A DNA stretch of 64,000 bases, taken from contig CAWHCF010000038.1 of the NCBI GenBank assembly GCA_963827655.1, forward strand, positions 1-64,000, written 5' to 3'. The position numbers and the translations under genes are program-made. The notes below the pieces were generated by a model. It had not been told where the DNA came from. It worked only from the letters and a program-made list of their open reading frames with translations, and made no database searches. Source of the stretch: an uncultured Acidobacteriota bacterium. GTDB lineage: Bacteria; Acidobacteriota; UBA6911. Below, piece by piece: positions 16,851 to 31,774 of this stretch; position 1 is the stretch's first letter; the number at the start of each line of letters is the position of its first letter.

Positions 16851-19501
16851 TCAGAGCATCCATAACTCTGGTCGGAGTAGCTGCTTGACCTTATGCAGCA
16901 GGATGCGACCGATCATCTGGCGGCCAAAGTCGATGCGCGCGAAGGCCGTCATTCCAGGTCGCAGCAGGCCATCACTGTTCTCGATTATCAGCTCGACACG
17001 GTAGGTTCGCTGACCGTATTGGTCTTGTTCGCTCTCACCGCTCATCTTAGAGACCCGGCCCCGGAAGCGCCGATCGGGGAAAGAGGCAGTCTTCAGGCGC
17101 ACGGGATAACCGACCCGCACGTCACCGATCTGCCGCTCTGATACCTGAATGCGAACGAGCAAGCGGGTAGTGTCGGCGACGCGGCAGATTTCCTCGCCCT
17201 TCTGAAAGTATTGCCCGAGCATGCGCGGCAAATCTTCCCCGAAAACCGTGCCCTTCCGGGACGTCGTCAGCTCAAACTGCGCGCGTTTGCGCTGGAGCAG
17301 AATGCGACGCTGTTCAAGCGTGTCGAGTAGCGCCCGCGTGGAACGTAGCTCGCCTTCGAGATTCTCAACCTGTTGGGTCTCGGCACTGAAATCCGAGCGC
17401 GCCAGGTGCATTTCCGTCCCTATACTCGTGTGCTTCCGTCGATGCTCTACGAGGGCCGCTTCGAGCCGTTCGCGCGCGGCCTCCAGTTCAGCCGTGAGAG
17501 TCGAGGAACGCGTCTCGGCTGTGTCGAGCTCGCTGCGCGGCAGGAGGCCTTCACCGAAGAGTTGCCGGGCACGCCTGAGCTGAGCGTCGGATTCCCCGAG
17601 CTGCGCTCGGCGCAGCTCAACATCAGCTTGCAAGACGGCAATAGCGGCCGGGTAGGACGTTGCGGCTCTACTGAGCAGGTTATTCGATGCCGGCAAAGCA
17701 GTCGGTGAGAACGAGGCGGTTATCACCCGTGCCGTGTCTACATTCGACTCGGGAAGCCGGGGTTGGTTGATCTGACGCTGCTCGGCATCGATTTCTTCGT
17801 ACTCATACCGGCGCTGGCGCAGTTGTGCTTCGGCGCGGACAGTTAATTCCCCTCGCACGCGCAGCTCACCGAGCAACCGATCGTATTGGGCTTTGGCGCG
17901 CACCAGCTCGGATTGCACTTGCACGATCTGCTCATCAAGTTCGAGGTTGCCTAGCCGCCCCACTATTGAGCCGTCCACGACGAAGTCACCCGGCTGCGTG
18001 CGCAGCTCGACGAGCGTTGCGCTTTCAGGCGCGCGGATGATCGCCTCCTGACCCGGGAATGGCGATGAGGGTGCCGTAGCTTCCGACGGAAGCCTCCCAG
18101 GGCATCAGCAATGCGCCGATTGCCAGCAAGAAGATGGTTAGGGGCACGAGGTGTCGGCGCCACCGCGGTCGTTTCGTAGCACGTTCGCTTGTTTTTCCCC
18201 TTTCACTGCTCGCTGCTCCTTGATTATTAGTCTCCATGATGGCCTCCGATTTTGACGCAAGCTGCCGATTGACTACCATCCTCCAGAATTTGACAATCGT
18301 CGACGCTGTTGTAGTGATCATCTGCTCGAGCGGTCCGCGGATGAAAATGAGCCCCACTCCAGCGGTGAGCAGCAAGCCCAGGAGGTGAAGTGAATCGATC
18401 AGGTATCCGCCGACATAACAGATGAGGACGATGATCAGCCCCACCGTAAAGAGGGTAGAAAGAAACCCGAAGATGGCATACGTCGTGCGTTCGCGCCTGC
18501 TGTACTGCGCCGCTGCTTGCGTCGCGCTCGCCGGTAGACAACGCGCCGCCACAAGCCACGCCAGTAAGCCCGCGAGCGGGCCATTAAATTGGGCAGGCGC
18601 AGAGCCTGGCTTAGAAAGTAATAACCATCGAGTTTGATGAGCGGGTTCGCATTGAAGGCGACGTTCACGACACTGCCGAGAAAAAAGAGGAAAGCAAGCT
18701 CTGAGATGAGTGTGTGAGGCGCGACCGCAAACCAGGTGAGCAGCGCAGCGGTGCCGACGAGCAGCTGCCAGTAGACACCGGCCAGGATCACCCACAGCCG
18801 CCGCCGTACCTGCGGGATGAGGTGGAGGCCTGACACATTGCAATAGAGCGCGGGCAAGAAATAGAAGACCATCAGGACGCCAACCTCGGTCGAACGCCCT
18901 CCGAAGGCTTTGCAGGTCAACCCGTGCGCGAACTCGTGTGAGAAGACCACGAGGGTTCCGGCAAGGAATACGGCGACAAAGTGTTCGCGCAGCACGATAC
19001 GCGCCGTAGCTCGTCACTTCGGCCCAATCCCTGAGACGACAGCAGAAGCGCTAACAGCATCAGCAAAAGGGTGGTGACGACAAATCCCGGCGTCCAGACC
19101 CAGCGCAAGAGCGGAACCATCCGCGCGAAGAGGCGGTCCGGGTTGAAGAGCTTGAAACGGACGTAGAACTGACGGCCGTGGCCGATCTGGCTGGCCTGGC
19201 CTTTGGGTGCGCTCCCCGGCAAGAACGCCGATCTCATCCAGCTCGGGCCAGAAACTTGTGGAGTGCCGCAAGGGAGAGCCTGCCGCCATGCTTTTGCCTG
19301 AATTCGTCGCAGAGTGCCGTGGGAGCGAGAGACTCGCCGAGCAACTGCAATACACTAATGCTCGGTCGGATGTAACAGGACGTAGCGGCCGACGGCAGCC
19401 GAGCCGACGATGTAAACCAGTCGTTCGCCATCACGCTGCTCGGTGACCTCCACGTCGGAGGCGATCTGTGGCGGATAAGCGCAATAGTCGCCCTTAAACA
19501 T
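16851..19501 (-). CDS. Fused PqqD/RRE-like domain + site-2 (M50) Zn metalloprotease + HlyD-type periplasmic adaptor (several indels)
   Basis: [34 protein letters not shown]...ELDEIGVL N-domain; FNPDRLF; SHEFAHGLTCK.FGG...E.GV; NANPLIKLDGYY; then TM, coiled coil and RGRVSKMS...LRPGMTAFARIDFG; ORF 18025-19017 reads from the protease C-terminus into the adaptor N-terminus without a stop. Confidence 0.8.
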
Positions 19502-20759
19502 TGCCTGCTTCCTTGGGGCACAGGGGAGCGGGGTTAATGCCGGACACTCCTTTATCTCCCCGGTGGCTCTGCTCCCTTGCCGCGCCTCTGGCGCGAGCTT
19601 CCAGTTCAAGCGCTTCAGGCATGCGGTTAGTTTTTCTGAGCAGGCGCGCGTAATTCTCGAGACAGGTGATGATCTTGGGGTGACCCGGCTCGAGCGCTTG
19701 CTCGAAGATCAAGAGCGCCTGCTGATAAAGTGAGGCCGCCTCTTGATGCCTCCCTCTGAGATTTAAGAAGCACGGCCAGGTTATTAAGCGTCATGGCGAC
19801 GTCCGGGTGGGCAGGCCCAAGGAGCTTCTCCTTAATCGTGAGAGCTCGCCGGTAGAGCGCCTCGGCCTCTGAGCTTTCGCCCCTGGCCTGATGGAGCGCT
19901 GCCAGGTTGTTCAAGGTTGACGGCGATCTCGTAGTGCTCCGGGCCGAGAACGCGCTCGAAGGTAGCAAGCGCGCGCCGGTACAATGGCTCTGCTTCATCG
20001 TGCTTGCCTTGGCCATCCAAGAGGGCTGCCAATGCGGCAATATCGGCGGCGACGTCCAGATGATCCGGGCCAAGCGCCTTCTCCCGAATCTCCACGGAGC
20101 GCCGGGCAAAAGGCTCGCCCTCAGCATAGCGGCCGCGCGCGTGCTCGAGCCCGCCGAGGTTGTGGTAGATGGTCGCTGCTTGTTGATGATTAGAACCGAG
20201 AACCTTCTCGGTGATCGCCAATGCCCGCCGGTAGAGCTGCTCGGCGTCATCGAAGCGGCCCATGTACTTGTAGAGCACTGCCAGATTGTTGAGGACTGTC
20301 GATACTTCAAGATGCTCGGCGCCAAAGACTTTCTCGGCAAGCTCGAGCGACCGTCGAAAGAGGGCTTCTGCCTCTTGATAACGTCCTCGAGCGCGGTAGA
20401 TCCCGGCCAGGTTACGGAGCGACCGCACGTGGAGCTTCTGCACTGCGACTCTTTCTCCCGCCCCTTCTAGAATCCTGACCGAGCGCTGATAAAACTGCTG
20501 GGCCTTGGCGTATTCGCCCTGATCTTCGTAGGTTCTCGCCAGGCTGTTGAGCAGAGGGACGAGATGGAAGTGGTTTGGTCCGACTGCTCTCTCCAAGAGT
20601 CGCTGCGCCTGAAGGTATAAAGATTCGGCCTTCCGATGCTTGCCTTGAATGCGACAGGCAAGAGCGCGACTACGGAGATGGCGCACGACTTCTGCTGGAT
20701 TCAGATTCGGCGCCTTCTCCGCAGTCTTTGAGATTTGTCTGGAAGTTGTTCATCGACAT
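19494..20759 (-). CDS. TPR-only protein (42-aa repeats; indels)
   Basis: Repeats such as [36 protein letters not shown] across ORFs 19832-20686, 19627-20340 and 19494-19712; stop overlaps the next ATG. Confidence 0.8.
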
Positions 20760-20794: not shown

Positions 20795-20821
20795 GAAGAA
20801 CTGGTCGCTCGACCAGTCTTC
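20795..20821 (-). terminator. Stem-loop just downstream of the repeat precursor gene
   Basis: GAAGAACTGGTC-GCTC-GACCAGTCTTC inverted repeat; no clear U tract, so it may be a stabiliser or partial terminator. Confidence 0.45.
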
Positions 20822-20834
20822 AGTGAACGAAAAT

Positions 20835-21389
20835 AGCCGGGGGAGGTGGCTACGCCAGGGGGCGACCACCTCTTCCGACTCATCAATACTCAGTCGATCT
20901 CTGCGATGTCGTTCACGAGCATTTCGTTATGGTTCCAGGCAATGCCTGAGCGATCACTTCCTCCAACTCTTCGATACTCAATTCGATCTCGGCGTGTCGC
21001 TGACGAGCGTTTCGTTGTGGTTATAATGCCGGGAGCGATCACTTCCTCCAGCTCTTCGACACTCAATTCGATCTCTGCGATGTCGCTGACGAGCGTTTCG
21101 TTGTGGTTGGTAATGCCTGGAGCGATCACTTCCTCCAGCTCTTCGATGCTCAGTTCGATCTCTCGATGTCGCTGATAAGCGTCTCGTTGTGGTTCAAGTC
21201 AAGGCCTGGAGCGATCACTTCCTCCAGCTCTTCGACCCTCAGTTCAATCTCTCTGGTGTCGCTGATAAGCATCTCGTTGTGGTTCAAGGCAATGCCTGGA
21301 GCGATCACTTCCTCCAGCTCTTCGATGCTCAGTTCAATCTCAACTGCCATCACGTTTTCCTTCTCGTCTCTGTTAACCTGTGTATTCAT
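20835..21389 (-). CDS. Multi-unit (tandem core) peptide precursor; 3' end approximate because of indels
   Basis: AGGAG RBS; MNTQVNRDEKENVMAV then units EIELSIEELEEVIAPG-IAL-NHNEMLISDTR / -LDL-NHNETLISDIA / -IT-NHNETLVSDIA / -I?-NHNETLVSD.A / -IAW-NHNEMLVNDIA / EIxLSIDExEEVVAPG-VATSPG after correcting single-base indels. Confidence 0.75.
20853..21341 (-). repeat. Six tandem ~90-nt coding repeats
   Basis: gcgatcacttcctcc anchor at 21301, 21211, 21122, 21035 and 20950, with a variant gcgaccacctcttcc at 20862. Confidence 0.9.
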
Positions 21390-21930
21390 TGTTTTCTCCT
21401 GTATAATGAGGACCGGTCGAAAATGGCCGATCCCTGTTCTTTGACCTGCGTGGAATTGGTTTTGCCACTAAGGCTCATCCACGGCCTAGTTCAACGATCT
21501 AACTGCCTTTATCTACTAAAGCGGAAATTTGGCCCAAGACCTATCACCCCCTCGAAAAATTTCTTCTGGGTCCTTGCCGGCGGAGTACGAGGCGGCATCA
21601 AGAGATTGACAAATTTCCGCGGTCTGTGCCTGAGCCCGGCACATCGTTGTTGGGCAGCAACATTTTGCTCTGTGCCGGTATTCGATAGCATCGGCGTCCT
21701 TTGCAGTACGCAGGGCTGGCGACAAATACAGGGTTGCCGGCATCGCGGTGGCACTTTTACTCGGTGTGGTTGACCGGCTTTTCCTGGGTCGTGTTTACGA
21801 ACCTCCAGTCGTTAGGACCCTGGCTCGCCGACACGTGTCAAGGTCTGCTCGGCGTCCAAGCAACGTTTGATTGACTTGATTGGTTGGAGAGAGGTAACTT
21901 GCAAGGGGTATCTCGAAAGGAGTCAAGTTC

Positions 21931-23136
21931 ATGCATGTGCGTCCGTTTCTGTGCTTCCTGGCGCTTGTTGCAGTCATCGGTTGCACCAGCTCCAGAGCGC
22001 TTCAGACCGATGGCTCCAAGTCCAAGTCCAAGTGGCCGGAACATCCCGATTTCAAGCCGACTCCCGAGCAGGGACCGATGCCCAAGAGCCTGCTGGTTGT
22101 CAAGCGCGCGGACATCAAGAGAGCCAAATACCCGGCAATTGATTTTCACTTCCATGCCCAACTTCCGAAAACTGAAGACTACGTCAAAATGATCGCCGTC
22201 ATGGATAAGGCCGGCGTCGGAGTCCTGTGCAACATGAACGGCGGTCTGTACAAGACCCTGGACAAGAATCTCGAGGTCGGCAAGCCTTACAAGGACCGTA
22301 TCATCCATTTCGCCCGGCCCGTATGGGAGGGCATCAACCAACCCGGCTGGTCGGAAAAAACCGCGGCCGAGCTGGAGCGCGCCTTCCAGGTCGGGGCGCA
22401 GGGGCTGAAAATCAACAAGGCACTGGGACTGGAACTGAAAAACACCGACGGGACCTACATTCATTGCGACGACCCGCGATTGGATCCACTCTGGAAAATG
22501 TGCGCCAAGCACAACAAGCCCGTCATGATTCATGTGAGCGACCCGATCGCCCGCTTCCTTCCGATCGGCCCCGACAACGAACGCTACGAGGCGGGAAACT
22601 GGCGCAGCGACCCCGACGGTAACTACCATCGAACCGGTCAACCCCACTATAGCGAGATCTGGAAACACCAGGAAAACATGGTAGCCAGGCACCCCAACAC
22701 ACGCTTCGTGCTGGCTCATGTCGGGAACATGCCGGAGGACCTGGAACGGGCCGGAAAACTACTCGACAGGTTCCCCAACGCCGACATGGAGCTGTCCGCC
22801 CGTTTTCAAGATCTCGGCCGCCAGCCCTATACCGCCCGGAAATGGCTTATCAAGTACCAGGATCGGGTGCTGTTCGGCACCGACGGCAGTCCCGACCGCG
22901 AGGTAGAGCAATTCTGGACACCACATTGGCGATTTCTGGAAAGCGACGACGAAGACTTCGATCATCCGGCCCAGATGCTTTCTTCCCGTGGCGCTCCGCT
23001 GCAGGGACGCTGGAGAATCTACGGGGTCTTCCTGCCCGACGAGGTGTTGAAAAAGATCTACTATGAGAACGCACTGAAGTATTTGCCTTCGGTGCGTGAC
23101 TCAATCAAGAAACAGCTTGGTGGCAGGTCTTCTTAG
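21931..23136 (+). CDS. Amidohydrolase family protein (lipoprotein-like signal)
   Basis: IDFHFH, GAQGLKI, PVMIHVSDP, FVLAH, RVLFGTD, KKIYYENA. Confidence 0.85.
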   Translation: MHVRPFLCFLALVAVIGCTSSRALQTDGSKSKSKWPEHPDFKPTPEQGPMPKSLLVVKRADIKRAKYPAIDFHFHAQLPKTEDYVKMIAVMDKAGVGVLCNMNGGLYKTLDKNLEVGKPYKDRIIHFARPVWEGINQPGWSEKTAAELERAFQVGAQGLKINKALGLELKNTDGTYIHCDDPRLDPLWKMCAKHNKPVMIHVSDPIARFLPIGPDNERYEAGNWRSDPDGNYHRTGQPHYSEIWKHQENMVARHPNTRFVLAHVGNMPEDLERAGKLLDRFPNADMELSARFQDLGRQPYTARKWLIKYQDRVLFGTDGSPDREVEQFWTPHWRFLESDDEDFDHPAQMLSSRGAPLQGRWRIYGVFLPDEVLKKIYYENALKYLPSVRDSIKKQLGGRSS

Positions 23137-23177
23137 GCGTTTCTTAGTGTCTTTGAGTCTTAGTGGTATTTATAGTT

Positions 23178-24623
23178 ATGAGAGTGCTGCTGGTCTCCTG
23201 CTATGAGCTGGGTCATCAGCCCCTGGCCCTCGCCGGCCCGGCTGCGCACATTCTTGCCGAAACTCCTGCGGCAGTCGAATGCCTTGATCTTGCGGTAGAA
23301 CCCTTTGATGCCGGCAAGGTCGGACGCGCGGATATCGTGGGTATTTCTGTACCTATGCATACGGCTCTCAGGCTGGGCGTCAGAGCTGCTGCCAGGGTGC
23401 GTTCGTTGAATCCCACGTGCCATGTCTGTTTCTACGGACTCTATGCGTCCCTTAATAGAGATTACCTGTTGGGGCACGTTGCCGACAGCGTCATAGGAGG
23501 TGAGTACGAGCGCCCTTTGATCAATCTGGTCAAGTCATTGTCAAACGGCGCGGGTGTGACCGTCGATCTGGAAGGGGTTTCGACTCCGGCACAGCAGTCC
23601 GGTCCGTTTCTGGGTCGTCAGGTCTTCCTGCCTCCGACGCGAAGCCTTTTGCCTCCGCTGGAAAAATACGCCCGGCTGGACACGGGCGAAGGCTTCAAAC
23701 TCGTGGGATATGTGGAGGCCACCCGCGGCTGTCTTCACACCTGCCTGCATTGTCCGATCACGCCCGTTTATGAAGGGCGTCTTCGTGTCATCAAGGGTGA
23801 CATTCTCCGAAGGGATATAGCCGCCCTGGTCCAGATGGGCGCGCAGCACATCACCTTTGGTGATCCCGACTTCCTCAACGCGATCACTCACTCGCTTCGC
23901 GTCGCAAGACAGCTTCATGAAGACTTTCCCGACCTCACTTTCGACATGACCACGAAAGTGGAACATATCGTAAAACATCCGACCTTGTTCGAGGCGCTGC
24001 GCGAGCTCGGTTGCATTTTCGTCGTGAGTGCGGTCGAGTCGCTCAACGATCGAATTCTTCAATACCTGGAAAAGGGACATACGCGGGACGACGTCGTCGC
24101 AGCCCTGGAAATTACCCGTCAGGCGGGTATTGCCCTTCGACCGTCTCTAGTCTCATTCACTCCCTGGACCACCCTGGAGGATTACATCGACGTCCTGGAC
24201 TTCGTAGAAGAACACGGACTGATTTACCATGTCGATCCGGTGCAGTACTCGATCCGGCTCCTGGTTCCGCCCGGGTCGAGTCTGCTCGATGCCCCTCAAA
24301 TGAAACCTTTCCTGGGAGTGCTCAACCGGGAAACGTTCTCCTACGAATGGAAGCATCCCGATCCGCGGATGGACGCCCTCCAGGAGGCAGTCGGCGCGAT
24401 TGCCGAAGCGGCGACGCGCAGCAAGGAAGATCCGGCGTCGACTTTCGATAAGATCAGGGCTCTGGCGCTCTCGCTGAACGGGAACAGAAGTTTCTCCCCG
24501 CCGGCGGTGCGCAAGATTCCGAGAGCGGCTCGTCCAGCACAGCTGACAGAATCATGGTTCTGCTGAGCGGAACCGACGAGGGACCAGTTGGTCCCAGTGA
24601 CCGGGTTTCCCACGCAGTTCTGA
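23178..24623 (+). CDS. CUAEP-tail radical SAM selenoprotein (UGA at 24564-24566 read as Sec)
   Basis: MRVLLVSCYELGHQP start, CLHTCLHC cluster motif, ends TESWFC-UGA-AEPTRDQLVPVTGFPTQF*. Confidence 0.85.
24580..24595 (+). promoter_or_regulatory. Candidate bacterial SECIS hairpin
   Basis: GGGACC-AGUU-GGUCCC perfect stem starting 13 nt after the UGA. Confidence 0.6.
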
Positions 24624-24728
24624 CCAGCTTGAATTTCCTGGCTCATTACCTTTCTTGGCGTCTTAGTTGGTTGGTTCATAATTACGCTGACGTATTGTGT
24701 AGCGGTAGGAGTCGCTGTGTTGTCGCCT

Positions 24729-24765
24729 AGGGCCGAAGGCCCGTCAGTGAGTAGCCCGGCCCTGA
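24729..24765. repeat. Partial copy of the REP element at 42913
   Basis: AGGGCCGAAGGCCCGTCAGTGAGTAGCCC matches the reverse complement of the 43091 end. Confidence 0.55.
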
Positions 24766-24897
24766 ACTGGCAAAATGGGCTGTGTCGCGGCGTCAGACTT
24801 TGCAGAACCCATGCATGGCACGTATCAGCGTCCTGGTGGTCAGAACATCCCAAGGAGCGACACGCGAAGGAATCCGTTCGAAAGGCAGAGGAGAGTT

Positions 24898-25680
24898 GTG
24901 ATTATTGATTTCCATGCCCATTATCCGCGCCAGGAGAATTTCCTCCCTCGGCTGCTCGAAGCGCTGCCGCGCGCCGGCATTGATCGCATTTGCCTCTGTT
25001 CGGCCGGCGAGAATTTCGGCCACGTCTCTAATGAAGAAGTGCGGGCGGCCTTCGAGCATCACCCGGACCGTGTCATTGGCCTGGCCCTGGTGAGGTTGGG
25101 AATAGATCCGCCCGAACTCGTGGACGAGTACGTGCGTCAGGGATTCAAGGGGATCAAAACTACCAATCCGACTTTGCCCTACGATGATCCATCCTTCTAC
25201 CCGTATTACGAGCGGATAGAACAGCATCAGCTCCCCGTACTTTTTCACACCGGCATCGTCGCCCGCACCGAAGGGGATCGCGAACTGCGAGTCAGCTCGA
25301 TGAAAATGCAGCCCGGGCGCTTGGATGCCGTCGCTCGAGCATTCCCGCAATTGAATATTGTTGCCGCCCACCTGGGAGTGCCCTGGTATGAGGAAGCTTC
25401 AATGCTGGCGCGCATTCACCCGAACTTCTATGTCGATCTGACCGGGGCATGGTGGGGTGGCTGGCGGGCTAACAAGGGACCTGATTTCTACCGGTATCAC
25501 TTCTTCTGGCCCGGCGCCTGGGAGAAGATAGTGTTTGGGACCGATATCCTGCGAGTCGAGGAGCTCGAACCCGCAAAACAAATTCACGACCGCATCTTTG
25601 AAGCTCTGGACCTCGATCGTGGGACCCTGGACAAGATCTATGGCGGCACTGCGGCGCGCCTGTTGCACCTGCAGATTTAA
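24898..25680 (+). CDS. Amidohydrolase_2 family metal-dependent hydrolase
   Basis: GAGGAG RBS, IIDFHAH, GFKGIK, PVLFHTG, IVAAHLG, IVFGTD. Confidence 0.85.
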   Translation: MIIDFHAHYPRQENFLPRLLEALPRAGIDRICLCSAGENFGHVSNEEVRAAFEHHPDRVIGLALVRLGIDPPELVDEYVRQGFKGIKTTNPTLPYDDPSFYPYYERIEQHQLPVLFHTGIVARTEGDRELRVSSMKMQPGRLDAVARAFPQLNIVAAHLGVPWYEEASMLARIHPNFYVDLTGAWWGGWRANKGPDFYRYHFFWPGAWEKIVFGTDILRVEELEPAKQIHDRIFEALDLDRGTLDKIYGGTAARLLHLQI

Positions 25681-25682
25681 TT

Positions 25683-25750
25683 AGGGACGTCCCACACGTT
25701 TCCTATTTTTTTGTCACTGCAAGAAATCGGGAAACGTGTGGGACGTCCCT
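25683..25750. repeat. Perfect 21-bp inverted repeat (REP-like or terminator)
   Basis: AGGGACGTCCCACACGTTTCC ... GGAAACGTGTGGGACGTCCCT. Confidence 0.8.
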
Positions 25751-25774
25751 GATTTAATTTATACTACGCGAATC

Positions 25775-27034
25775 TTGACCGGCACATCTCAACTCACATC
25801 GAGAGCACGCTGGCGGATTGTGGCCCTATTATCGGCCTCGATTGCCATCAACCTGGTCGATCGCCAGGTGCTGTCGGTTGTAGCGCCGGTAATCCGCGAG
25901 GAGTTCAAGTTCAGTAATACCCACTATTCGTACATCGTTTTTGCCTTCCAGCTGGGCATGTTTGCCGGCCAGCTCCCCGCGGGCTGGCTTATGGATTCTA
26001 TCGGGACACGCCTCGGACTGGTTTTGATCTTCATCGGCTGGTCGGCCACAAACGGCTTGCATGCCCTGGCGCGCGGCATGGGGAGCTTCGTGGGACTTCG
26101 CTTCCTGATGGGACTGACCGAATGCGGAAACTATAGCGGCGGGATCAAGACCATTTCCGGCTTGTTCGGCCCCGAACGGCGGGCGCTGGCGGGAGGCATC
26201 TTCAATGCGGGGGCACAGCTGGGTTCCATCGTCGCGCCACCCCTCATTGTTTTCATCACCTTGAAGTTTGGCTGGCGGATGGCGTTCCTGGTGCCAAGCC
26301 TTCTCGGTCTGCTCTGGATCATCCCATGGCTTGGATTATTTCCCCGCGACCTTGCGGCGCGCTCCGCAACGAGCCCTTCATCACAGATCGGATTCAAGAC
26401 ATTACTTGCCTGCTCGCAGGTTCGGGGACTGTTCTTGATGCGTGTCTTCTCAGGACCGCTGAGCAGCTTCTACTGGTACTGGATGCCCGAATATCTACGT
26501 CATGGACGCGGCATGTCGTTCGTCATGATCGGAATGCTTGCCTGGCTTCCTTATGTTTTCGGAAGCCTGGGCAATCTCGCGGGCGGATTCTTCTCGGATT
26601 ACTTGATTCGCCGGGGCGCGAGCCTGGACCGGGCCAGAAAAGCCGGTTTCAGCGTCGGCGCCGGGCTCTCGGCGTTGAGCCTGACTTTGCCGTTAGCGCC
26701 CGGCCATGTCGCGGCCGTGGCCATTATTTGCCTGATTGTCTTCGGTATGAACTGGATGGCGGCGACCTACATCGGAACCGTCGGCGACATTTTCCCGGAA
26801 GGAGTTGTGGGACGCGTGAACGGAATTGCCGGGGCCGGCGACAGCGGTATGGGCATGATCACCATGCTGCTCACGGGAATCGTGGTGGATCGCTTTTCGT
26901 ATTTTCCGGTTCTGATTGCTGCTGGCATTCTTCCGCTGCTCGCGCTGGCGAGCATTTTCTTCGTCGTGCGGCGCATCGAGCCCGTTCAGCTCCCGCTTAT
27001 GGAAGACAGCGAGCCGGTGCACGCAGCACGGTGA
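25775..27034 (+). CDS. MFS transporter, ExuT/hexuronate-like
   Basis: RWRIVALL...INLVDRQVLSV, GWLMDSIGTR, ERRALAGGIFNAGA, about 12 hydrophobic segments. Confidence 0.85.
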   Translation: MTGTSQLTSRARWRIVALLSASIAINLVDRQVLSVVAPVIREEFKFSNTHYSYIVFAFQLGMFAGQLPAGWLMDSIGTRLGLVLIFIGWSATNGLHALARGMGSFVGLRFLMGLTECGNYSGGIKTISGLFGPERRALAGGIFNAGAQLGSIVAPPLIVFITLKFGWRMAFLVPSLLGLLWIIPWLGLFPRDLAARSATSPSSQIGFKTLLACSQVRGLFLMRVFSGPLSSFYWYWMPEYLRHGRGMSFVMIGMLAWLPYVFGSLGNLAGGFFSDYLIRRGASLDRARKAGFSVGAGLSALSLTLPLAPGHVAAVAIICLIVFGMNWMAATYIGTVGDIFPEGVVGRVNGIAGAGDSGMGMITMLLTGIVVDRFSYFPVLIAAGILPLLALASIFFVVRRIEPVQLPLMEDSEPVHAAR

Positions 27035-27819: not shown

Positions 27820-30800
27820 TCAAAGTTCGCGCACGTCTTTGGAAGAAAGCAATGTGTTCCGCGGGTTATCCTCACGAATCGAGTCCGCCAGGGACCGCAC
27901 CACCGCCTGCGCGCGCGCGCGCAGGGCATCCCGGACGGAGGCGTCTCTGCGCCGGCCGGCCAGCTCCGCGGCGGCCTTGAGGATTTTCCACTCGATCATC
28001 GGACAAGGAAACTGCTCGATCAACCGCAGCGCAGCATCATATTCCCGCGCCGCATTCTCGAGCTGCTCTTCCAGGACGGCGATGTCACCTTGCAGCTTGT
28101 GCGCCCAGACCCTGCGCTTGGGGTTTTTGCCTTCGAGCGAGAGAGCGGCATGCTGGCCGGCCTGTTTGAGATCGCCCTGTGTGATCCAGTAGCTCGCGAG
28201 CTCTGCCTGAAGGCGCGGCTGGTAGACCCAGCGGAACCAAAAGTCCGTGCTGTGGAGTTGTTCGCCTTGCCGGAGGTGCTCCAGGGCGCGTGTCGGCTCG
28301 CCTAGCGCCAGATGGTCCCGCGCCGCGTTAATGTGGGAGTTGCACTCGCCTTCTACATCGCCGAATTCCCGGGCCATTTGAGCCGCTTCTGTGTCCAGCC
28401 GCAGCGCTGCCTCCAGGTCCTGCGCCTCCCCAAGGAGCCACGCCTGCGTATTGCCGAGACGGGGCGGCCAACGCCGGTTGCCGACGCGTTCTGCCAGGCT
28501 CGTAGCTTCTCTGAGCACGTCCAGCGCGTCGGAGATCCGGCCGCGGTTGCCGAGAACTCTGCCTTTGTGAAAGAGCGCCCTCAGTCTGTCGTCGCAGGCA
28601 CCACCCAGCTCCTGTGCCCTGGAGTCAGCCCAGTCCAGTGCACGCTCCGCGTCATCGTATTGCGACAGCATGGCATGAATACTCCCCCGGAAAGAGACGG
28701 CGGCGATGGTTAGCAAAGGCGGTCCGCTCCGGCGCAATACAGGAATGGCCCGGTCAAACAATGTTTCGGCTTCGGCAATCTGACCGGCGCACCACCGGGT
28801 ACAAGCTAAAATAAACCCACTCGCGGCCATGGCGGTGTCGGACCCCACAAGCCGGGCGAGTTCGAACGCACGCTCCCCTTCTTTCTGAGCTTCCGCCACA
28901 AGCTTCTTGTAGAAGAAAAGCACGGCCGCCTTGCTGCAGATAGCCTTGATTTGCACGTCGCGGTCTGCCGACTCGCCGGCCGCGCGCTCGGCGAGATCGA
29001 AAGCGGCAATCGCATCGTCGTACCGCGACATGTCCTGATAAAGCGGCCCCATTTCGAGAGCGGCTGCCAGGACACGCGTATGCCGCTCAGACCCCTTCAA
29101 TCTTTCCGCATCGGCGCCGGCGCGCTGGGAAAGCGCGACGGCTTCAGGATAGGCATAAACGCGGGCGGCGTTCCGGGCTGCTTGAAGGAAGTGATCCGAA
29201 GAGCGGGCAAAGTCCCGGGCGTCGTGGAACAAAAGTGCCAGTTCCGACGCCACCTCGGCGCTTCGCGCCGCGTAAAACTCCATCAGAGCGTGCGCGACGG
29301 CGCCGCTGAGCCTGGCCTTGCGCGTCGTCGCCAGCGAGGCCTGCAGAGCATTTTGATAGAGTACGTGCACGAACGAGTAGCGCAGGGTCAACGTCGAGTC
29401 GGGAAACTCCCGTTCGCCGATTAATCGCACTAGGCCGTGCAATCGTTCCAGCGCTTCCAGCCGCTCCTCAACCTCCGCCGGGTCGATCGCCAGAGCCTTG
29501 GCTAAGATGGCCGAGTCGAACTCGTGCCCCTGCACAGCAGCGGCGGCAGCCAGGCGGCGAGCCGGTTCGTCGAGCTGATCGATCTCTCTCTCGATCATGC
29601 TGCGCACCGACTCGGGCATTTCACCCTTGATCTTCGGCAAGGGCCGTGCCAGGGTCCACCGGCCATCCACCTGGGCGATGACTTCGCGATCCCGGAGGTA
29701 GCGTACAAGATCGACCATGAAGAGCGCGTTACCCTCGGTCGTGCCATGGATAGAAATCGCCAGATCGGCCGGAAAAGAATGCTCGGGGAAGTGGAGCCCC
29801 AGGTATTGTTCGACGTCCCCTGAGCTGAGGAAGTTGAGCGCAAGTTCGCGGCAGGCTCCGTGCGCCTGCAGCTCCTGCCGCACTTGAAGGAATGGATGCT
29901 TGGCCAACCGCAGGTCAGAAGGGCGATATGTCGCGACGATCAACACCCGCATCGCTGCGATGCGGCTTCCGGCATAGGCGATCAGATCTACCGTGGAAAC
30001 ATCAGCCCAATGCATGTTGTCAAAGAAGAGCACAAGCGGCTGGAGCCGGCTGACTTCCTCGAAGAACGCCAGGAGTTCACGTTTCAGGCGCGCCTGCGAC
30101 GCCGCTTTGACGTCGGCAAGCACAAGGGAGTCGGATGAATCGTGCGCGGAGAGAGGGACGATCTGGACATACCAGGTCGGCGCCACCAGCTTCAGGAGCC
30201 GCGTCACCGGGTCGCCGCCGCTGCGAATCAGGCTCTCGAGAGCTTCGAGTAGCGGCAGGTAAGCCTCGCTTCCCGCCAGCCGCTCCGAGCACCGCCCCTT
30301 TGCAACGTAACAGGCTCCGCTCTGGTCGCGCAGTTGGATCGAGAAATCCTCGATCAGCGTGCTCTTGCCGATGCCGGCCTCTCCGGCCACGCAAAGTACG
30401 AGCCCCCTGCCCTCGGATGCTGACTGGAACGCAGCTCCCAGTTCGGCCAATTCCTTCTTGCGCCCCACCGTGAGTCGCCGGACGGGGCCGCGCGCCGGCG
30501 CCTCTGTTCGCGGTAAGACTACTTGTCCGGCCAGTTGTGCCAGGCCGCGATACACTTCCCCGGCGGAAGGGCGCAGCCGCGAATCTCTTTCCAACATGCG
30601 CAGGATCAGGTCTTCCGATTCTCGAGATATCTCGGGCCTGAGCCGCGAGGGCGGCAATGGTTTCTCTGACAGGATCGCGTTCAAGACGCCGAGGTTCGAA
30701 TCCGCCTCGAAGGGATGACGGCCGGCGGCCAGCTCGTAGAGCAGAATGCCGAGAAAAAATATCGCTGGCTGGAGGCGCACTCTCTCCCAGGACCTGTTCG

Positions 30801-31354
30801 GGCGACATGTACCGAATCGTTCCCACGAGCGTTCCAGGAATGGTCGGGACCTCTGTGGCGGTCGCTGACGCGACATGGCTGCCGGCGGGAAGCACACGCG
30901 CCAAGCCGAAATCGAGGACCTTCACGTAGCCATCCTCGCGCACCATCACGTTTTCCGGCTTGATGTCGCGGTGCACGACGCCGGCGGCGTGTGCCACTGA
31001 CAGCGCTTTGGCCACCTCGTTGCCCAAACGCCAGACCTCGCGTAAAGGCAACCCTTCGGCGGCCAAGGCACGCAGGGTCCGGCCGTGCACCCATTCCATG
31101 ACGAGGAAAAACCCCGCTTCGGTTTCGCCGATGTCGTAGACGGTGACGATGTTGGGGTGATTCAGAGCGGAAGCGGCGCGCGCCTCTCTTTGGAATCGCT
31201 CGACGGAAACACGATCCTGCACCTTGTGCGCGGGCAGGAATTTCAGAGCGACCACGCGGCCAAGGCGCGTGTCCTCAGCCCCGTAAACCTCGCCCATGCC
31301 GCCCCGGCCCAGCTCGGACGTAATGCGGTAGTGGGATACAGTCCTGCCTATCAT
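27820..31354 (-). CDS. Ser/Thr protein kinase - AAA ATPase - TPR-like multidomain protein (frameshift in the A-run near 30755)
   Basis: LGRGGMGEVY, VALK, HRDIKPEN, DFGLA, GTIRYMSPEQ; TVGR..EL, GEAGIGKST; helical C-terminus. Confidence 0.88.
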
Positions 31355-31774
31355 CCTGGAGCCCTTAGAGGCCTGATAATAGCACATCTGGCCGTACCGA
31401 TCGCCGTCGCTGCAACGGGTTTTCGAGGGATACCCAGGCCGACAACCTGCGTTCGACTACCAGGATTTCGCAACAGCCTCGCCTTCGAGCGCGATTCTGA
31501 CATTATTATCTAGATGTCCAACCCGAATACATACTGGAGCTCATTCACGTCGCGTCCGATGAGCGAGCCGCAATCATTCTGCCCGAGACAGGTATCGTAG
31601 TCACATGCAAGCAACTCCGCGACCAGGTGACTGAAATGGCCGACGCGCTCGCGGCGCTCGGCATTCAAGAGGAGAGCGCATAGTAAAAACAAGCTGCGGT
31701 TTTGTCGCGCAGCCTCCATAGCCCCCTGGGATGAATCCCTGATGCTTCTGATATGGGTGTTATGTCAGCTGCGA

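Follow-up and report, generated by a model that had tools for sequence, protein, structure and literature searches.

A tandem array of peptide units in an Acidobacteriota genome

A 64 000-nt stretch of DNA (the window) from an Acidobacteriota genome (8.18 Mb in 53 contigs) was analysed around a minus-strand gene that appears to encode a multi-unit peptide precursor, and around the two genes that follow it. Tandem Repeats Finder detected an array at 20879-21341 (period 90, 5.3 copies, score 590), and six-frame translation placed its repeat units across all three minus frames. The units start at 21341, 21251, 21162, 21075, 20990 and 20901 and share one build, an acidic leader EIELxxEELEEVIAP, three to four variable residues and the segment NHNE(T/M)L(V/I)(S/N)D, with five such units being followed by a differing sixth (Table 1). 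Units of about 30 amino acids with this leader, these cores and NHNE had been described in a first-pass annotation made from the DNA alone, and both the array and the translations bear this out. The same annotation had seen only fragments among the open reading frames (ORFs), which was also correct: the sole intact ORF in the array, 21150-21389, is 79 aa long and covers units 1 and 2 only.

The continuous frame that had been expected to run through the units is not present in this assembly. The lengths of units 1-5 are 90, 89, 87, 85 and 89 nt, and therefore five single bases are missing in comparison with a codon-true array. These deletions lie near 21164/21163, 21023/21022, 20994/20993 and 20949/20948 and at the start of unit 6 (about 20896-20893); unit 6 takes two further corrections, its reading requiring a -1 fix at about 20893-20896 and, in a run of five C (20858-20862), a +1 fix. 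When the gaps were padded with N, units 1-5 contained no stops and all leader and NHNE residues were kept except in codons struck by a gap; the core of unit 4 reads G-I-(I) only once padded.

The sixth unit, previously read as carrying VATSPG, is confirmed as a differing unit that lacks NHNE, but the reading itself depends on one base fewer in the C run and on a frame fix. At 20830-20833 the contigs of two related strains have one T fewer, and unit 6 would then end ...GYFVH. Alternatively, the gene may end at the TGA at 20890-20892, right after ...IAEID, leaving unit 6 untranslated; one relative (P0013) ends with residues identical to ...IAEID, whether or not a stop codon follows in its contig. 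No second copy of the array was found in the same genome, a scan for promoters and terminators gave nothing exceeding shuffled sequence, and the GC content of the cluster was unremarkable.

Table 1. Coordinates of the precursor gene, its partner genes and other features of the window (TPR, tetratricopeptide repeat; RRE, RiPP recognition element, where RiPPs are peptides made on the ribosome and then modified post-translationally; MFS, major facilitator superfamily)
Feature	Position	Strand	Remarks
Ribosome-binding site AGGAG	21396..21400	-	6 nt ahead of ATG; read directly
ATG (21389) and 16-residue N-terminal stretch MNTQVNRDEKENVMAV	21342..21389	-	Common to relatives P0002-P0008 and P0013
Unit 1, 90 nt	21252..21341	-	Leader EIELSIEELEEVIAP, core GIAL, NHNEMLISDTR; reading EIELSIEELEEVIAPGIALNHNEMLISDTR
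Unit 2, 89 nt	21163..21251	-	Core GLDL; 3'-end base missing near 21164/21163, which terminates the 79-aa ORF; padded reading EIELRVEELEEVIAPGLDLNHNETLISDIX
Unit 3, 87 nt	21076..21162	-	Core GIT, NHNETLVSDIA; padded reading EIELSIEELEEVIAPGIT-NHNETLVSDIA
Unit 4, 85 nt	20991..21075	-	Core GI(I); two 1-base gaps, in an A run near 21023/21022 and near 20994/20993; padded reading EIELSVEELEEVIAPGIX-NHNETLVSDXA
Unit 5, 89 nt	20902..20990	-	Core GIAW, NHNEMLVNDIA; the Pro codon of AP lacks a C near 20949/20948; padded reading EIELSIEELEEVIAXGIAWNHNEMLVNDIA
Unit 6, differing	20820..20901	-	Degenerate leader E-I-(E)-LSIDESEEVVAP, then GVATSPGYF..., without NHNE
TPR_12/TPR_10 gene, kinesin-light-chain-like	19623..20686	-	Ortholog of the family TPR gene; three frames, shifts near 19917 and 19757
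RRE-site-2 metalloprotease-HlyD fusion gene	16851..19498	-	Frames -1/-3/-2/-3, at least three shifts
Intact TPR_12/TPR_10 gene, 504 aa	11379-12893	+	About ten repeats
Homolog of the family's upstream kinase	27820-31387	-	Overlapping ORFs of 1025 aa and 436 aa, each in its own frame
Amidohydro_2	21931-23136	+	Separate gene set (21931-27034), which is not conserved with the peptide family
Radical SAM, CUAEP/CCAEP-tail (seleno)protein model	23163-24566	+	645 bits (cut-off 500); also ArsL-like, 335 bits; separate gene set
Second Amidohydro_2	24775-25680	+	Separate gene set
MFS transporter	25736-27034	+	Separate gene set

Variation among the units

Units 1-5 form 10 pairs, over which differences were summed by the Nei-Gojobori method; the counts are low, and the units, being paralogous, are not independent and can be homogenised. 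Leader codons gave pS 0.221 and pN 0.027 (ratio 0.12), all non-core codons gave a ratio of 0.21, and the three core codons gave pN 0.277 with a pS of 0. The variation is codon-structured, and these values support, short of proof, purifying selection outside the core. The earlier impression that variation is concentrated after APG, with synonymous changes elsewhere that imply selection on the protein, agrees with these data.

A family of single-unit and multi-unit relatives

The array is far from a chance sequence. A search with the 79-aa ORF yielded 49 protein relatives, with E-values down to 5e-35 when the window's own proteins were excluded. These proteins are built alike from one to four units, those with a single unit being 45-57 aa long, and longer members have six and eight. 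A profile of the single-unit members, run against 1.84 billion representatives of a 50%-identity library, gave 545 representatives at E<=1e-3 and 176 at E<=1e-10. All five padded units of the window were matched by the profile and have the family's leader ...E-x-x-I-A-P, short variable cassette and NHNE(T/M); the family's continuous ORF through all units is interrupted in the window by the five breaks. None of the eight peptides scanned reached a curated cut-off in Pfam-A or NCBIfam. The family is sparse in the phylum, being found in 3/401 and 2/301 genomes, and 60 genomes of the same family or class gave no match to the 79-aa ORF. One genome occurs in both of these phylum samples, which puts the window's genome and the Blastocatellia genome of L012 into one phylum.

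In total 92 loci were compared, 76 from soil metagenomes and 16 from reference genomes, the latter in metagenome-assembled genomes labelled Blastocatellia or Acidobacteriota, Solibacteraceae, Acidimicrobiia and Heliobacteriaceae. A precursor-like ORF was present in 89 of the 92, and 85 ORFs were complete and continuous, with 1-12 NHNE motifs (commonest count, three). The cassette between AP and NHNE had four residues in 231/287 cases, and in 63 of the 71 multi-unit ORFs all cassettes were distinct. Entropy per position ranged from 0.15 to 1.2 bits over the core of the leader and from 3.4 to 3.8 bits at positions 3-4 of the cassette, the Pro at -1 and the His being invariant by construction, as the pattern used to cut the units fixes both. 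Copy number and core diversity among relatives, with their intact multi-unit ORFs, largely bear out the first-pass suggestion that such a gene encodes a small peptide library. NHNE is invariant, as was claimed, but it forms part of a longer segment NHNETLV-x-D, and the role as a handle for a TPR protein that structure prediction assigns to it (see below) had not been foreseen. Several precursor loci occur per genome, and therefore their partners may act in trans.

A terminal leader followed by a tail without NHNE was found in 27 of the 85 ORFs, and a differing last unit is a family trait. Fifteen of those tails are a conserved cassette, TPSIPIPPP[LF]R[NV]H, with the protein ending at ...NH (L008, L012 and many of L051-L126). 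This terminal cassette, which is one related sequence and not independent evidence, hints that products might end at this point. Its strong conservation contrasts with the hypervariability of the internal cassettes. One precursor (L006) continues from this Pro-rich cassette into a complete NHNETFVSD.

NHNETLV-x-D was also observed in other protein backgrounds (P0060, P0104, P0146, P0164, P0177; P0077, P0082, P0106, P0124, P0128, P0148). It recurs in signal-peptide proteins of 160-431 aa as CxPxxCG-x-NHNETLVRD or GCDDWGCG-x-NHNET repeats, and is carried by a basic subtype with 'IVKLEERIAP' leaders and long Lys-rich linkers. At one locus (L049, 10317-11840, minus strand) a 507-aa Ser/Ala/Leu/Gln-rich protein with an N-terminal hydrophobic stretch adjoins a TPR ortholog and ends ...YLNHNETLVVDEGR. 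The segment may serve as a C-terminal tag on larger proteins too.

Conserved gene neighbourhood

Neighbouring ORFs from the 16 reference loci and the window were clustered all against all, and four neighbours were recurrent: a TPR protein, a protease-HlyD protein, an extracytoplasmic function (ECF) sigma factor and a Ser/Thr kinase. A TPR_12/TPR_10 protein of ~300 aa is encoded directly downstream of the precursor and is followed by a protein of ~870 aa; upstream and divergent lie the ECF sigma factor (PF07638, TIGR02999) and the kinase, which has one membrane span and a C-terminal TPR part. Over loci with enough flanking DNA the TPR gene was present in 38/63, the protease gene in 21/37, the ECF gene in 23/47 and the kinase gene in 23/34. 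The window has the TPR and protease-HlyD genes in the family order, both frame-split. According to a paper on ECF sigma factors, a class of them that lack anti-sigma factors is thought to be controlled by phosphorylation, and the upstream ECF/kinase pair belongs to this class. The pair, with the periplasmic sensor part of the kinase in relatives, suggests signal-controlled expression. The kinase homolog in the window is split into two overlapping ORFs, probably another frame break.

The clustering gave no conserved tailoring gene beyond these four neighbours. Specifically, no oxidative decarboxylase pair, aminotransferase or methyltransferase was conserved in the clustering or found in the Pfam scans of the window's neighbouring genes, the scans as a whole covering some but not all ORFs of the loci. 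The radical SAM and amidohydrolase genes beside the precursor were considered as tailoring enzymes and rejected, as they are not conserved with the peptide and the radical SAM protein belongs to another named family.

Large proteins with TPR_12 and a CHAT (caspase-like protease) domain were seen within a few kb of the precursor at 4/16 reference loci (L007, L008, L012, L017); the window's own genome has one TPR-CHAT homolog, outside the window on contig C10. At L050 (10286-11719, minus strand) and L043 a JmjC (cupin oxygenase) gene lies directly upstream of a TPR ortholog, followed by HlyD, C39-ABC and ABC proteins. No NHNE ORF was found within this 19-kb locus, and the JmjC gene was rejected as a conserved partner, since it is present in one place only (the two loci overlap) and was found neither at other loci nor in the window's own genome.

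A protease-HlyD protein with an RRE-like domain, and proposed leader recognition

The first ~390 residues of the 867-aa neighbour align with the model of the daptide intramembrane metalloprotease (NF041824) along positions 1-372 of its 379, at E 2e-50 to 5e-53 and below the curated cut-off. The YydH/LiaK epipeptide protease model matches more weakly (E 1.5e-10 to 3e-12), and the C-terminal part matches HlyD adaptors. HEFAH lies inside a hydrophobic stretch in all seven relatives inspected; in the window this motif is retained at about 18924-18938, and the C-terminal 401 aa, the HlyD part (16854-18056), are in one frame. The predicted fold of the N-terminal 125 aa has three strands and three helices (pLDDT 71.5). 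When it was compared with the PDB by Foldseek the top 14 rows were all RREs or RRE-bearing RiPP proteins, the best being TbiB1 (E 6e-3, TM 0.70); the rows included TbiB1 with its leader, ThcOx, lasso B1, TigE, PqqD, a sactipeptide synthase and a heterocyclase. A sequence search of the PDB with the RRE alignment returned chance-level rows only (E 0.9). The protein thus combines a sub-threshold NF041824 match, HEFAH and an RRE-like fold, the make-up of an RRE-fused intramembrane site-2 peptidase of the daptide type.

In the daptide preprint an RRE is fused to a site-2 protease, the leader motif is ELExMEAP with Pro at -1, and L(-7) and M(-4) are essential for RRE-dependent processing. The leader EELEEVIAP of the present family has L(-7), V(-4), A(-2) and P(-1) in the same places. 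The daptide leader model NF041808 was matched over positions 1-14, at best with E 4.8e-5 and 23 bits (cut-off 25) among eight family peptides. From the leader spacing and the homology of the RRE-protease, we infer that the RRE binds every leader and that cleavage falls after AP. The first-pass claim that every unit carries its own recognition sequence is strengthened by the repeated leader block, the daptide-like spacing and the presence of an RRE-protease gene two places downstream, but membership of the RiPPs in the strict sense is unproven and no conserved modifying enzyme accompanies the peptide. According to a review, the M50 protease EpeP is thought both to cut and to export its peptide. 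By analogy, the HlyD fusion suggests combined cutting and export across two membranes.

The TPR partner and the NHNETLV segment

Neither a signal peptide nor a membrane span was seen in the TPR protein, whose sequences from nine loci share 53-67% identity and 90 invariant columns. A complex of the L010 precursor with its TPR protein was predicted with a score of 0.78, the highest of three controls reaching 0.29; this passes the mark of the tool, which 58/80 solved complexes and 2/110 mismatched pairs attained. Between runs at least 79% of contacts were in common, and partner pLDDT was at least 54. The predicted interface comprises peptide residues 21-36 (APGFVVNHNETLVSDA), namely AP, the cassette and NHNETLVSDA, with the leader outside. 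The contacts of least error were made by N29, E30, T31 and L32 of the peptide (second Asn, Glu, Thr and Leu) and by TPR residues that included the invariant columns N152, G154, G155, H158, A193, A194, N235, N236, N277 and N278. The closest solved relative of the TPR protein is the kinesin light chain TPR (E 8e-57), and this domain is known in solved complexes with acidic peptides.

In the reverse test, which is an independent check, a profile of the TPR protein was run on 301 genomes of the phylum, and an NHNET ORF adjoined four of six matches of at least 340 bits and none of 11 weaker ones. In two of these four cases the peptide's leader is of another kind and ends ...VKAG(G). Family scans at one of the two loci (L047) identified HlyD, a C39-ABC exporter and a second ABC protein next in order; at the other (L048) the downstream ORFs were matched by size alone. 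From these few examples, leader and exporter appear to change together while NHNET and the TPR protein stay constant.

The architecture of an RNPP/Rap receptor, a TPR domain with an output domain (HTH or the N-terminal bundle of Rap), was not found, TPR families being the only ones matched; the RNPP_C match was weak (E 9e-4, 19.2 bits with a cut-off of 26.5). The window also encodes an intact TPR_12/TPR_10 protein of 504 aa, ~7 kb from the cluster, which is 42-49% identical to the family TPR partner by tblastn.

Frame breaks in the cluster and elsewhere in the assembly

In the window's own genome rpoB, rpoC and secA were each divided over two frames, while gyrA, ileS and uvrA were whole; the three split genes lie on contig C8 (37089-39423 and 77700-86155). 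A living cell needs rpoB, rpoC and secA intact, and so indel errors are present in the assembly. A valS-like gene on contig C29 and a second uvrA on C52 likewise change frame.

Contigs of related strains, 88-99% alike, were taken from four public soil runs for comparison. At 18052, 19752 and 19917, all frame-change sites, these contigs have one base fewer, and among the indels listed the same was seen at 19242, 19355, 20731, 20754 and 20830. The best DNA identity of the metagenome loci to the window cluster was 69-74%, which offers no close intact copy for a base-by-base comparison. The TPR gene of the window kept 87/90 of the residues invariant in nine relatives; intact relatives that were held out kept 90/91, 90/98 and 90/91. 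These data suggest that the frame breaks are probably consensus errors of the assembly.

Discussion

With somewhat more confidence than doubt, we take the locus to belong to an uncharacterised family of multi-unit, leader-guided peptide precursors, with processing by an RRE-protease-HlyD protein, a handle for a TPR protein and frame breaks that are artefactual. The unit anatomy, the family, its gene order and the domain homologies are observed directly in these data; the steps that follow draw on homology, structure prediction and co-occurrence. By homology, the RRE domain would bind the leader of each unit and the site-2 (HExxH) protease would cut after AP, as the daptide peptidase MpaP does, with the periplasmic HlyD part coupling release to export across two membranes. 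The cytoplasmic TPR protein is predicted to hold the NHNETLV segment in its groove and, given also its co-occurrence with the peptide, may be a handle-binding adaptor or chaperone. One gene would yield five different short peptides and a differing terminal one, and the products are possibly unmodified, because no tailoring enzyme is conserved. Our best guess for their role is secreted signalling or kin recognition. The copy in the window is an ordinary family member, possibly damaged.

Several observations weigh against this reading. The NF041824 match reaches 172-180 bits where the curated cut-off is 300; the NF041808 match is also below its cut-off, the 79-aa ORF of the window giving E 0.011 and 15.5 bits; and the Foldseek E-values are weak, 6e-3 and worse. 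The calibration of the complex prediction tool applies only roughly, as our own alignments were used, and the score may reflect likeness to kinesin light chain alone. Partners are absent beside many loci that have enough flank (TPR in 25/63, protease in 16/37). No match to the ECF gene was found beside the window precursor, and the nearest kinase homolog is ~6-10 kb off and is itself frame-split. Cutting after AP alone would leave the internal peptides fused to the next leader; a second cut is needed, for which no enzyme was found. Indels are also dense in the cluster: the 4.5 kb from 16.85 to 21.39 kb contain at least 10, whereas six housekeeping genes, together roughly 18 kb as estimated from match coordinates, contain 3. 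A uniform error rate does not account for such a local excess. The related-strain contigs cover the precursor thinly (depth 0.08-3.7, the best run matching 0.17 of sampled words, with no RNA run among the matches listed) and do not settle the five gaps in the array.

That excess is the chief argument for a different account, to which we give an appreciable but lesser chance, namely that the cluster is truly decaying here and that the precursor, TPR and protease-HlyD genes are pseudogenes with real indels from which no peptides are made, the indels having built up, for example, after horizontal acquisition. The flanking genes are full length, with the radical SAM protein matching its profile over 1-457 of 468 and the amidohydrolase, DUF6807 and GFO/IDH genes intact; the family is rare in the samples of the phylum; and the ECF/kinase pair does not adjoin the precursor in the window. 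However, decay at the level of substitutions is absent, since leader and NHNE residues are kept outside the codons hit by gaps, leader pN/pS is low, and the TPR invariants and HEFAH are retained. Essential genes are broken as well, so the assembly does produce such errors. By our own reading five of seven sites lie in or beside short homopolymer runs, and the array and the TPR gene are internally repetitive, a kind of sequence in which polishing is prone to fail.

The remaining alternatives concern the products, not the integrity of the gene. It is rather unlikely that the peptides are true RiPPs in which an enzyme encoded elsewhere modifies Asn, His, Glu or Thr or the cassette, with the TPR protein as a scaffold presenting the NHNE site. 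A near-invariant NHNE preceded by residues that are free to vary is typical of a recognition or modification site, and the several precursor loci per genome make action in trans plausible; the TPR-CHAT proteins near 4/16 loci and the JmjC-type oxygenase adjoining one TPR ortholog could be cited in the same sense. Against this, clustering of neighbours from the 16 loci yields no conserved gene except the four named above, the JmjC gene occurs in a single place seen in two overlapping loci, and the radical SAM protein of the window is a strong member of the CUAEP/CCAEP-tail family that is not conserved with the peptide. Somewhat less probable again is that the TPR protein serves not as a biosynthetic helper but as a Rap/RNPP-type receptor in the cytoplasm, the peptides being pheromones that the membrane protease cuts and that are exported, re-imported and sensed. 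Rap-Phr and RNPP cassettes have a comparable layout, and the site-2 protease Eep processes enterococcal pheromones; here too the peptide gene adjoins the TPR gene, a site-2 protease is involved, regulators are nearby, and in the predicted model it is the mature part of the peptide, and not the leader, that sits in the TPR groove. But the TPR protein has no DNA-binding or other output domain and matches RNPP_C only weakly, several different cores per precursor would be unusual for a pheromone, and the neighbour clustering revealed no conserved oligopeptide importer nearby. Very improbable, finally, is a gene that encodes no precursor at all but a repetitive acidic protein, a multivalent scaffold on which NHNE motifs recruit several TPR proteins. 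NHNETLV-x-D does terminate the 507-aa protein beside a TPR ortholog and is repeated in the signal-peptide proteins of 160-431 aa. However, there are forms with a single unit and a length of 45-57 aa, the diversity of the variable cassette is typical of cores, and in the examples seen leaders co-vary with leader-cleaving exporters, the acidic leader with the RRE-site-2 protease and ...VKAG(G) with C39-ABC (one scanned locus).

The preferred reading, of a leader-guided precursor served by an RRE-protease-HlyD protein and a TPR partner, may be set beside known systems. Daptides (MpaA/MpaP) share the acidic leader that ends in AP with the same hydrophobic spacing, and a peptidase with an RRE ahead of an HExxH membrane protease, the NF041824 match being nearly full length. 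In contrast to daptides, all matches of the present family are below curated cut-offs, and its members have no invariant C-terminal Thr, the residue turned into an amine in daptides, ending instead in ...SDxxx or other tails (in the window ...IAEID or a Gly/Pro-rich tail). No conserved oxidoreductase, aminotransferase or methyltransferase was seen beside family loci; the precursors are multi-unit where daptide precursors are several separate genes; and the protease is HlyD-fused, with a TPR partner and the NHNE segment added. In epipeptides (YydF/EpeX, with the M50 protease YydH/EpeP) a membrane M50/site-2 protease is likewise thought to cut and export. The protease of the present family matches YydH/LiaK weakly, but the family has no radical SAM epimerase partner, has another leader, is multi-unit and has HlyD and the RRE fused on.

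Cyanobactin PatE-type precursors also hold several hypervariable cores per ORF with recognition sequences on both sides; the recognition sequences are unrelated, however, and no subtilisin-like PatA/PatG or heterocyclase was seen. Sets of the NHLP type, with a double-glycine C39-ABC exporter (PCAT) and HlyD, are used by a sister branch beside the TPR ortholog and NHNET peptides (at least one scanned locus), whereas the branch of the window has an RRE-site-2 protease-HlyD fusion instead of ABC/C39 and a leader of the daptide kind. The kinesin light chain TPR offers a parallel in which the model, by prediction, places an extended acidic peptide in the concave groove, but the family protein is bacterial, stands alone at ~300 aa and has the NHNETLV segment as its predicted ligand. 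Neither a TPR protein that reads an NHNE handle nor a fusion of RRE, protease and HlyD was found described in the literature searched. No literature on this family was found, the matches listed for 'NHNET' being irrelevant by title; searches for a RiPP with a site-2 protease and HlyD found none, and those for an Acidobacteria precursor with TPR and ECF gave only general ECF and sponge reviews.

As a practical lesson, the broken frame at this locus is most likely an assembly artefact and the gene calls of this genome need care. A wider proposal is put forward tentatively, with the doubts exceeding the grounds: that these genes define a new class of multi-core secreted peptides of soil Acidobacteriota and other phyla, with an NHNETLV handle read by the TPR protein, a swappable RRE-site-2 protease-HlyD or C39-ABC and HlyD module with matching leaders, one gene releasing a set of different short peptides without tailoring, and these peptides forming a diversifiable code for signalling or kin recognition that the neighbouring membrane kinase and ECF sigma factor read. 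The family would combine three ideas that are mostly met apart: every core has its own leader, a TPR protein reads a further, invariant handle, and the protease forms a fusion with a periplasmic adaptor. The export module also seems to be exchangeable, with the handle and the TPR partner retained. It may therefore offer a tractable system in which to study how one gene encodes many peptides and how leader and exporter co-evolve.

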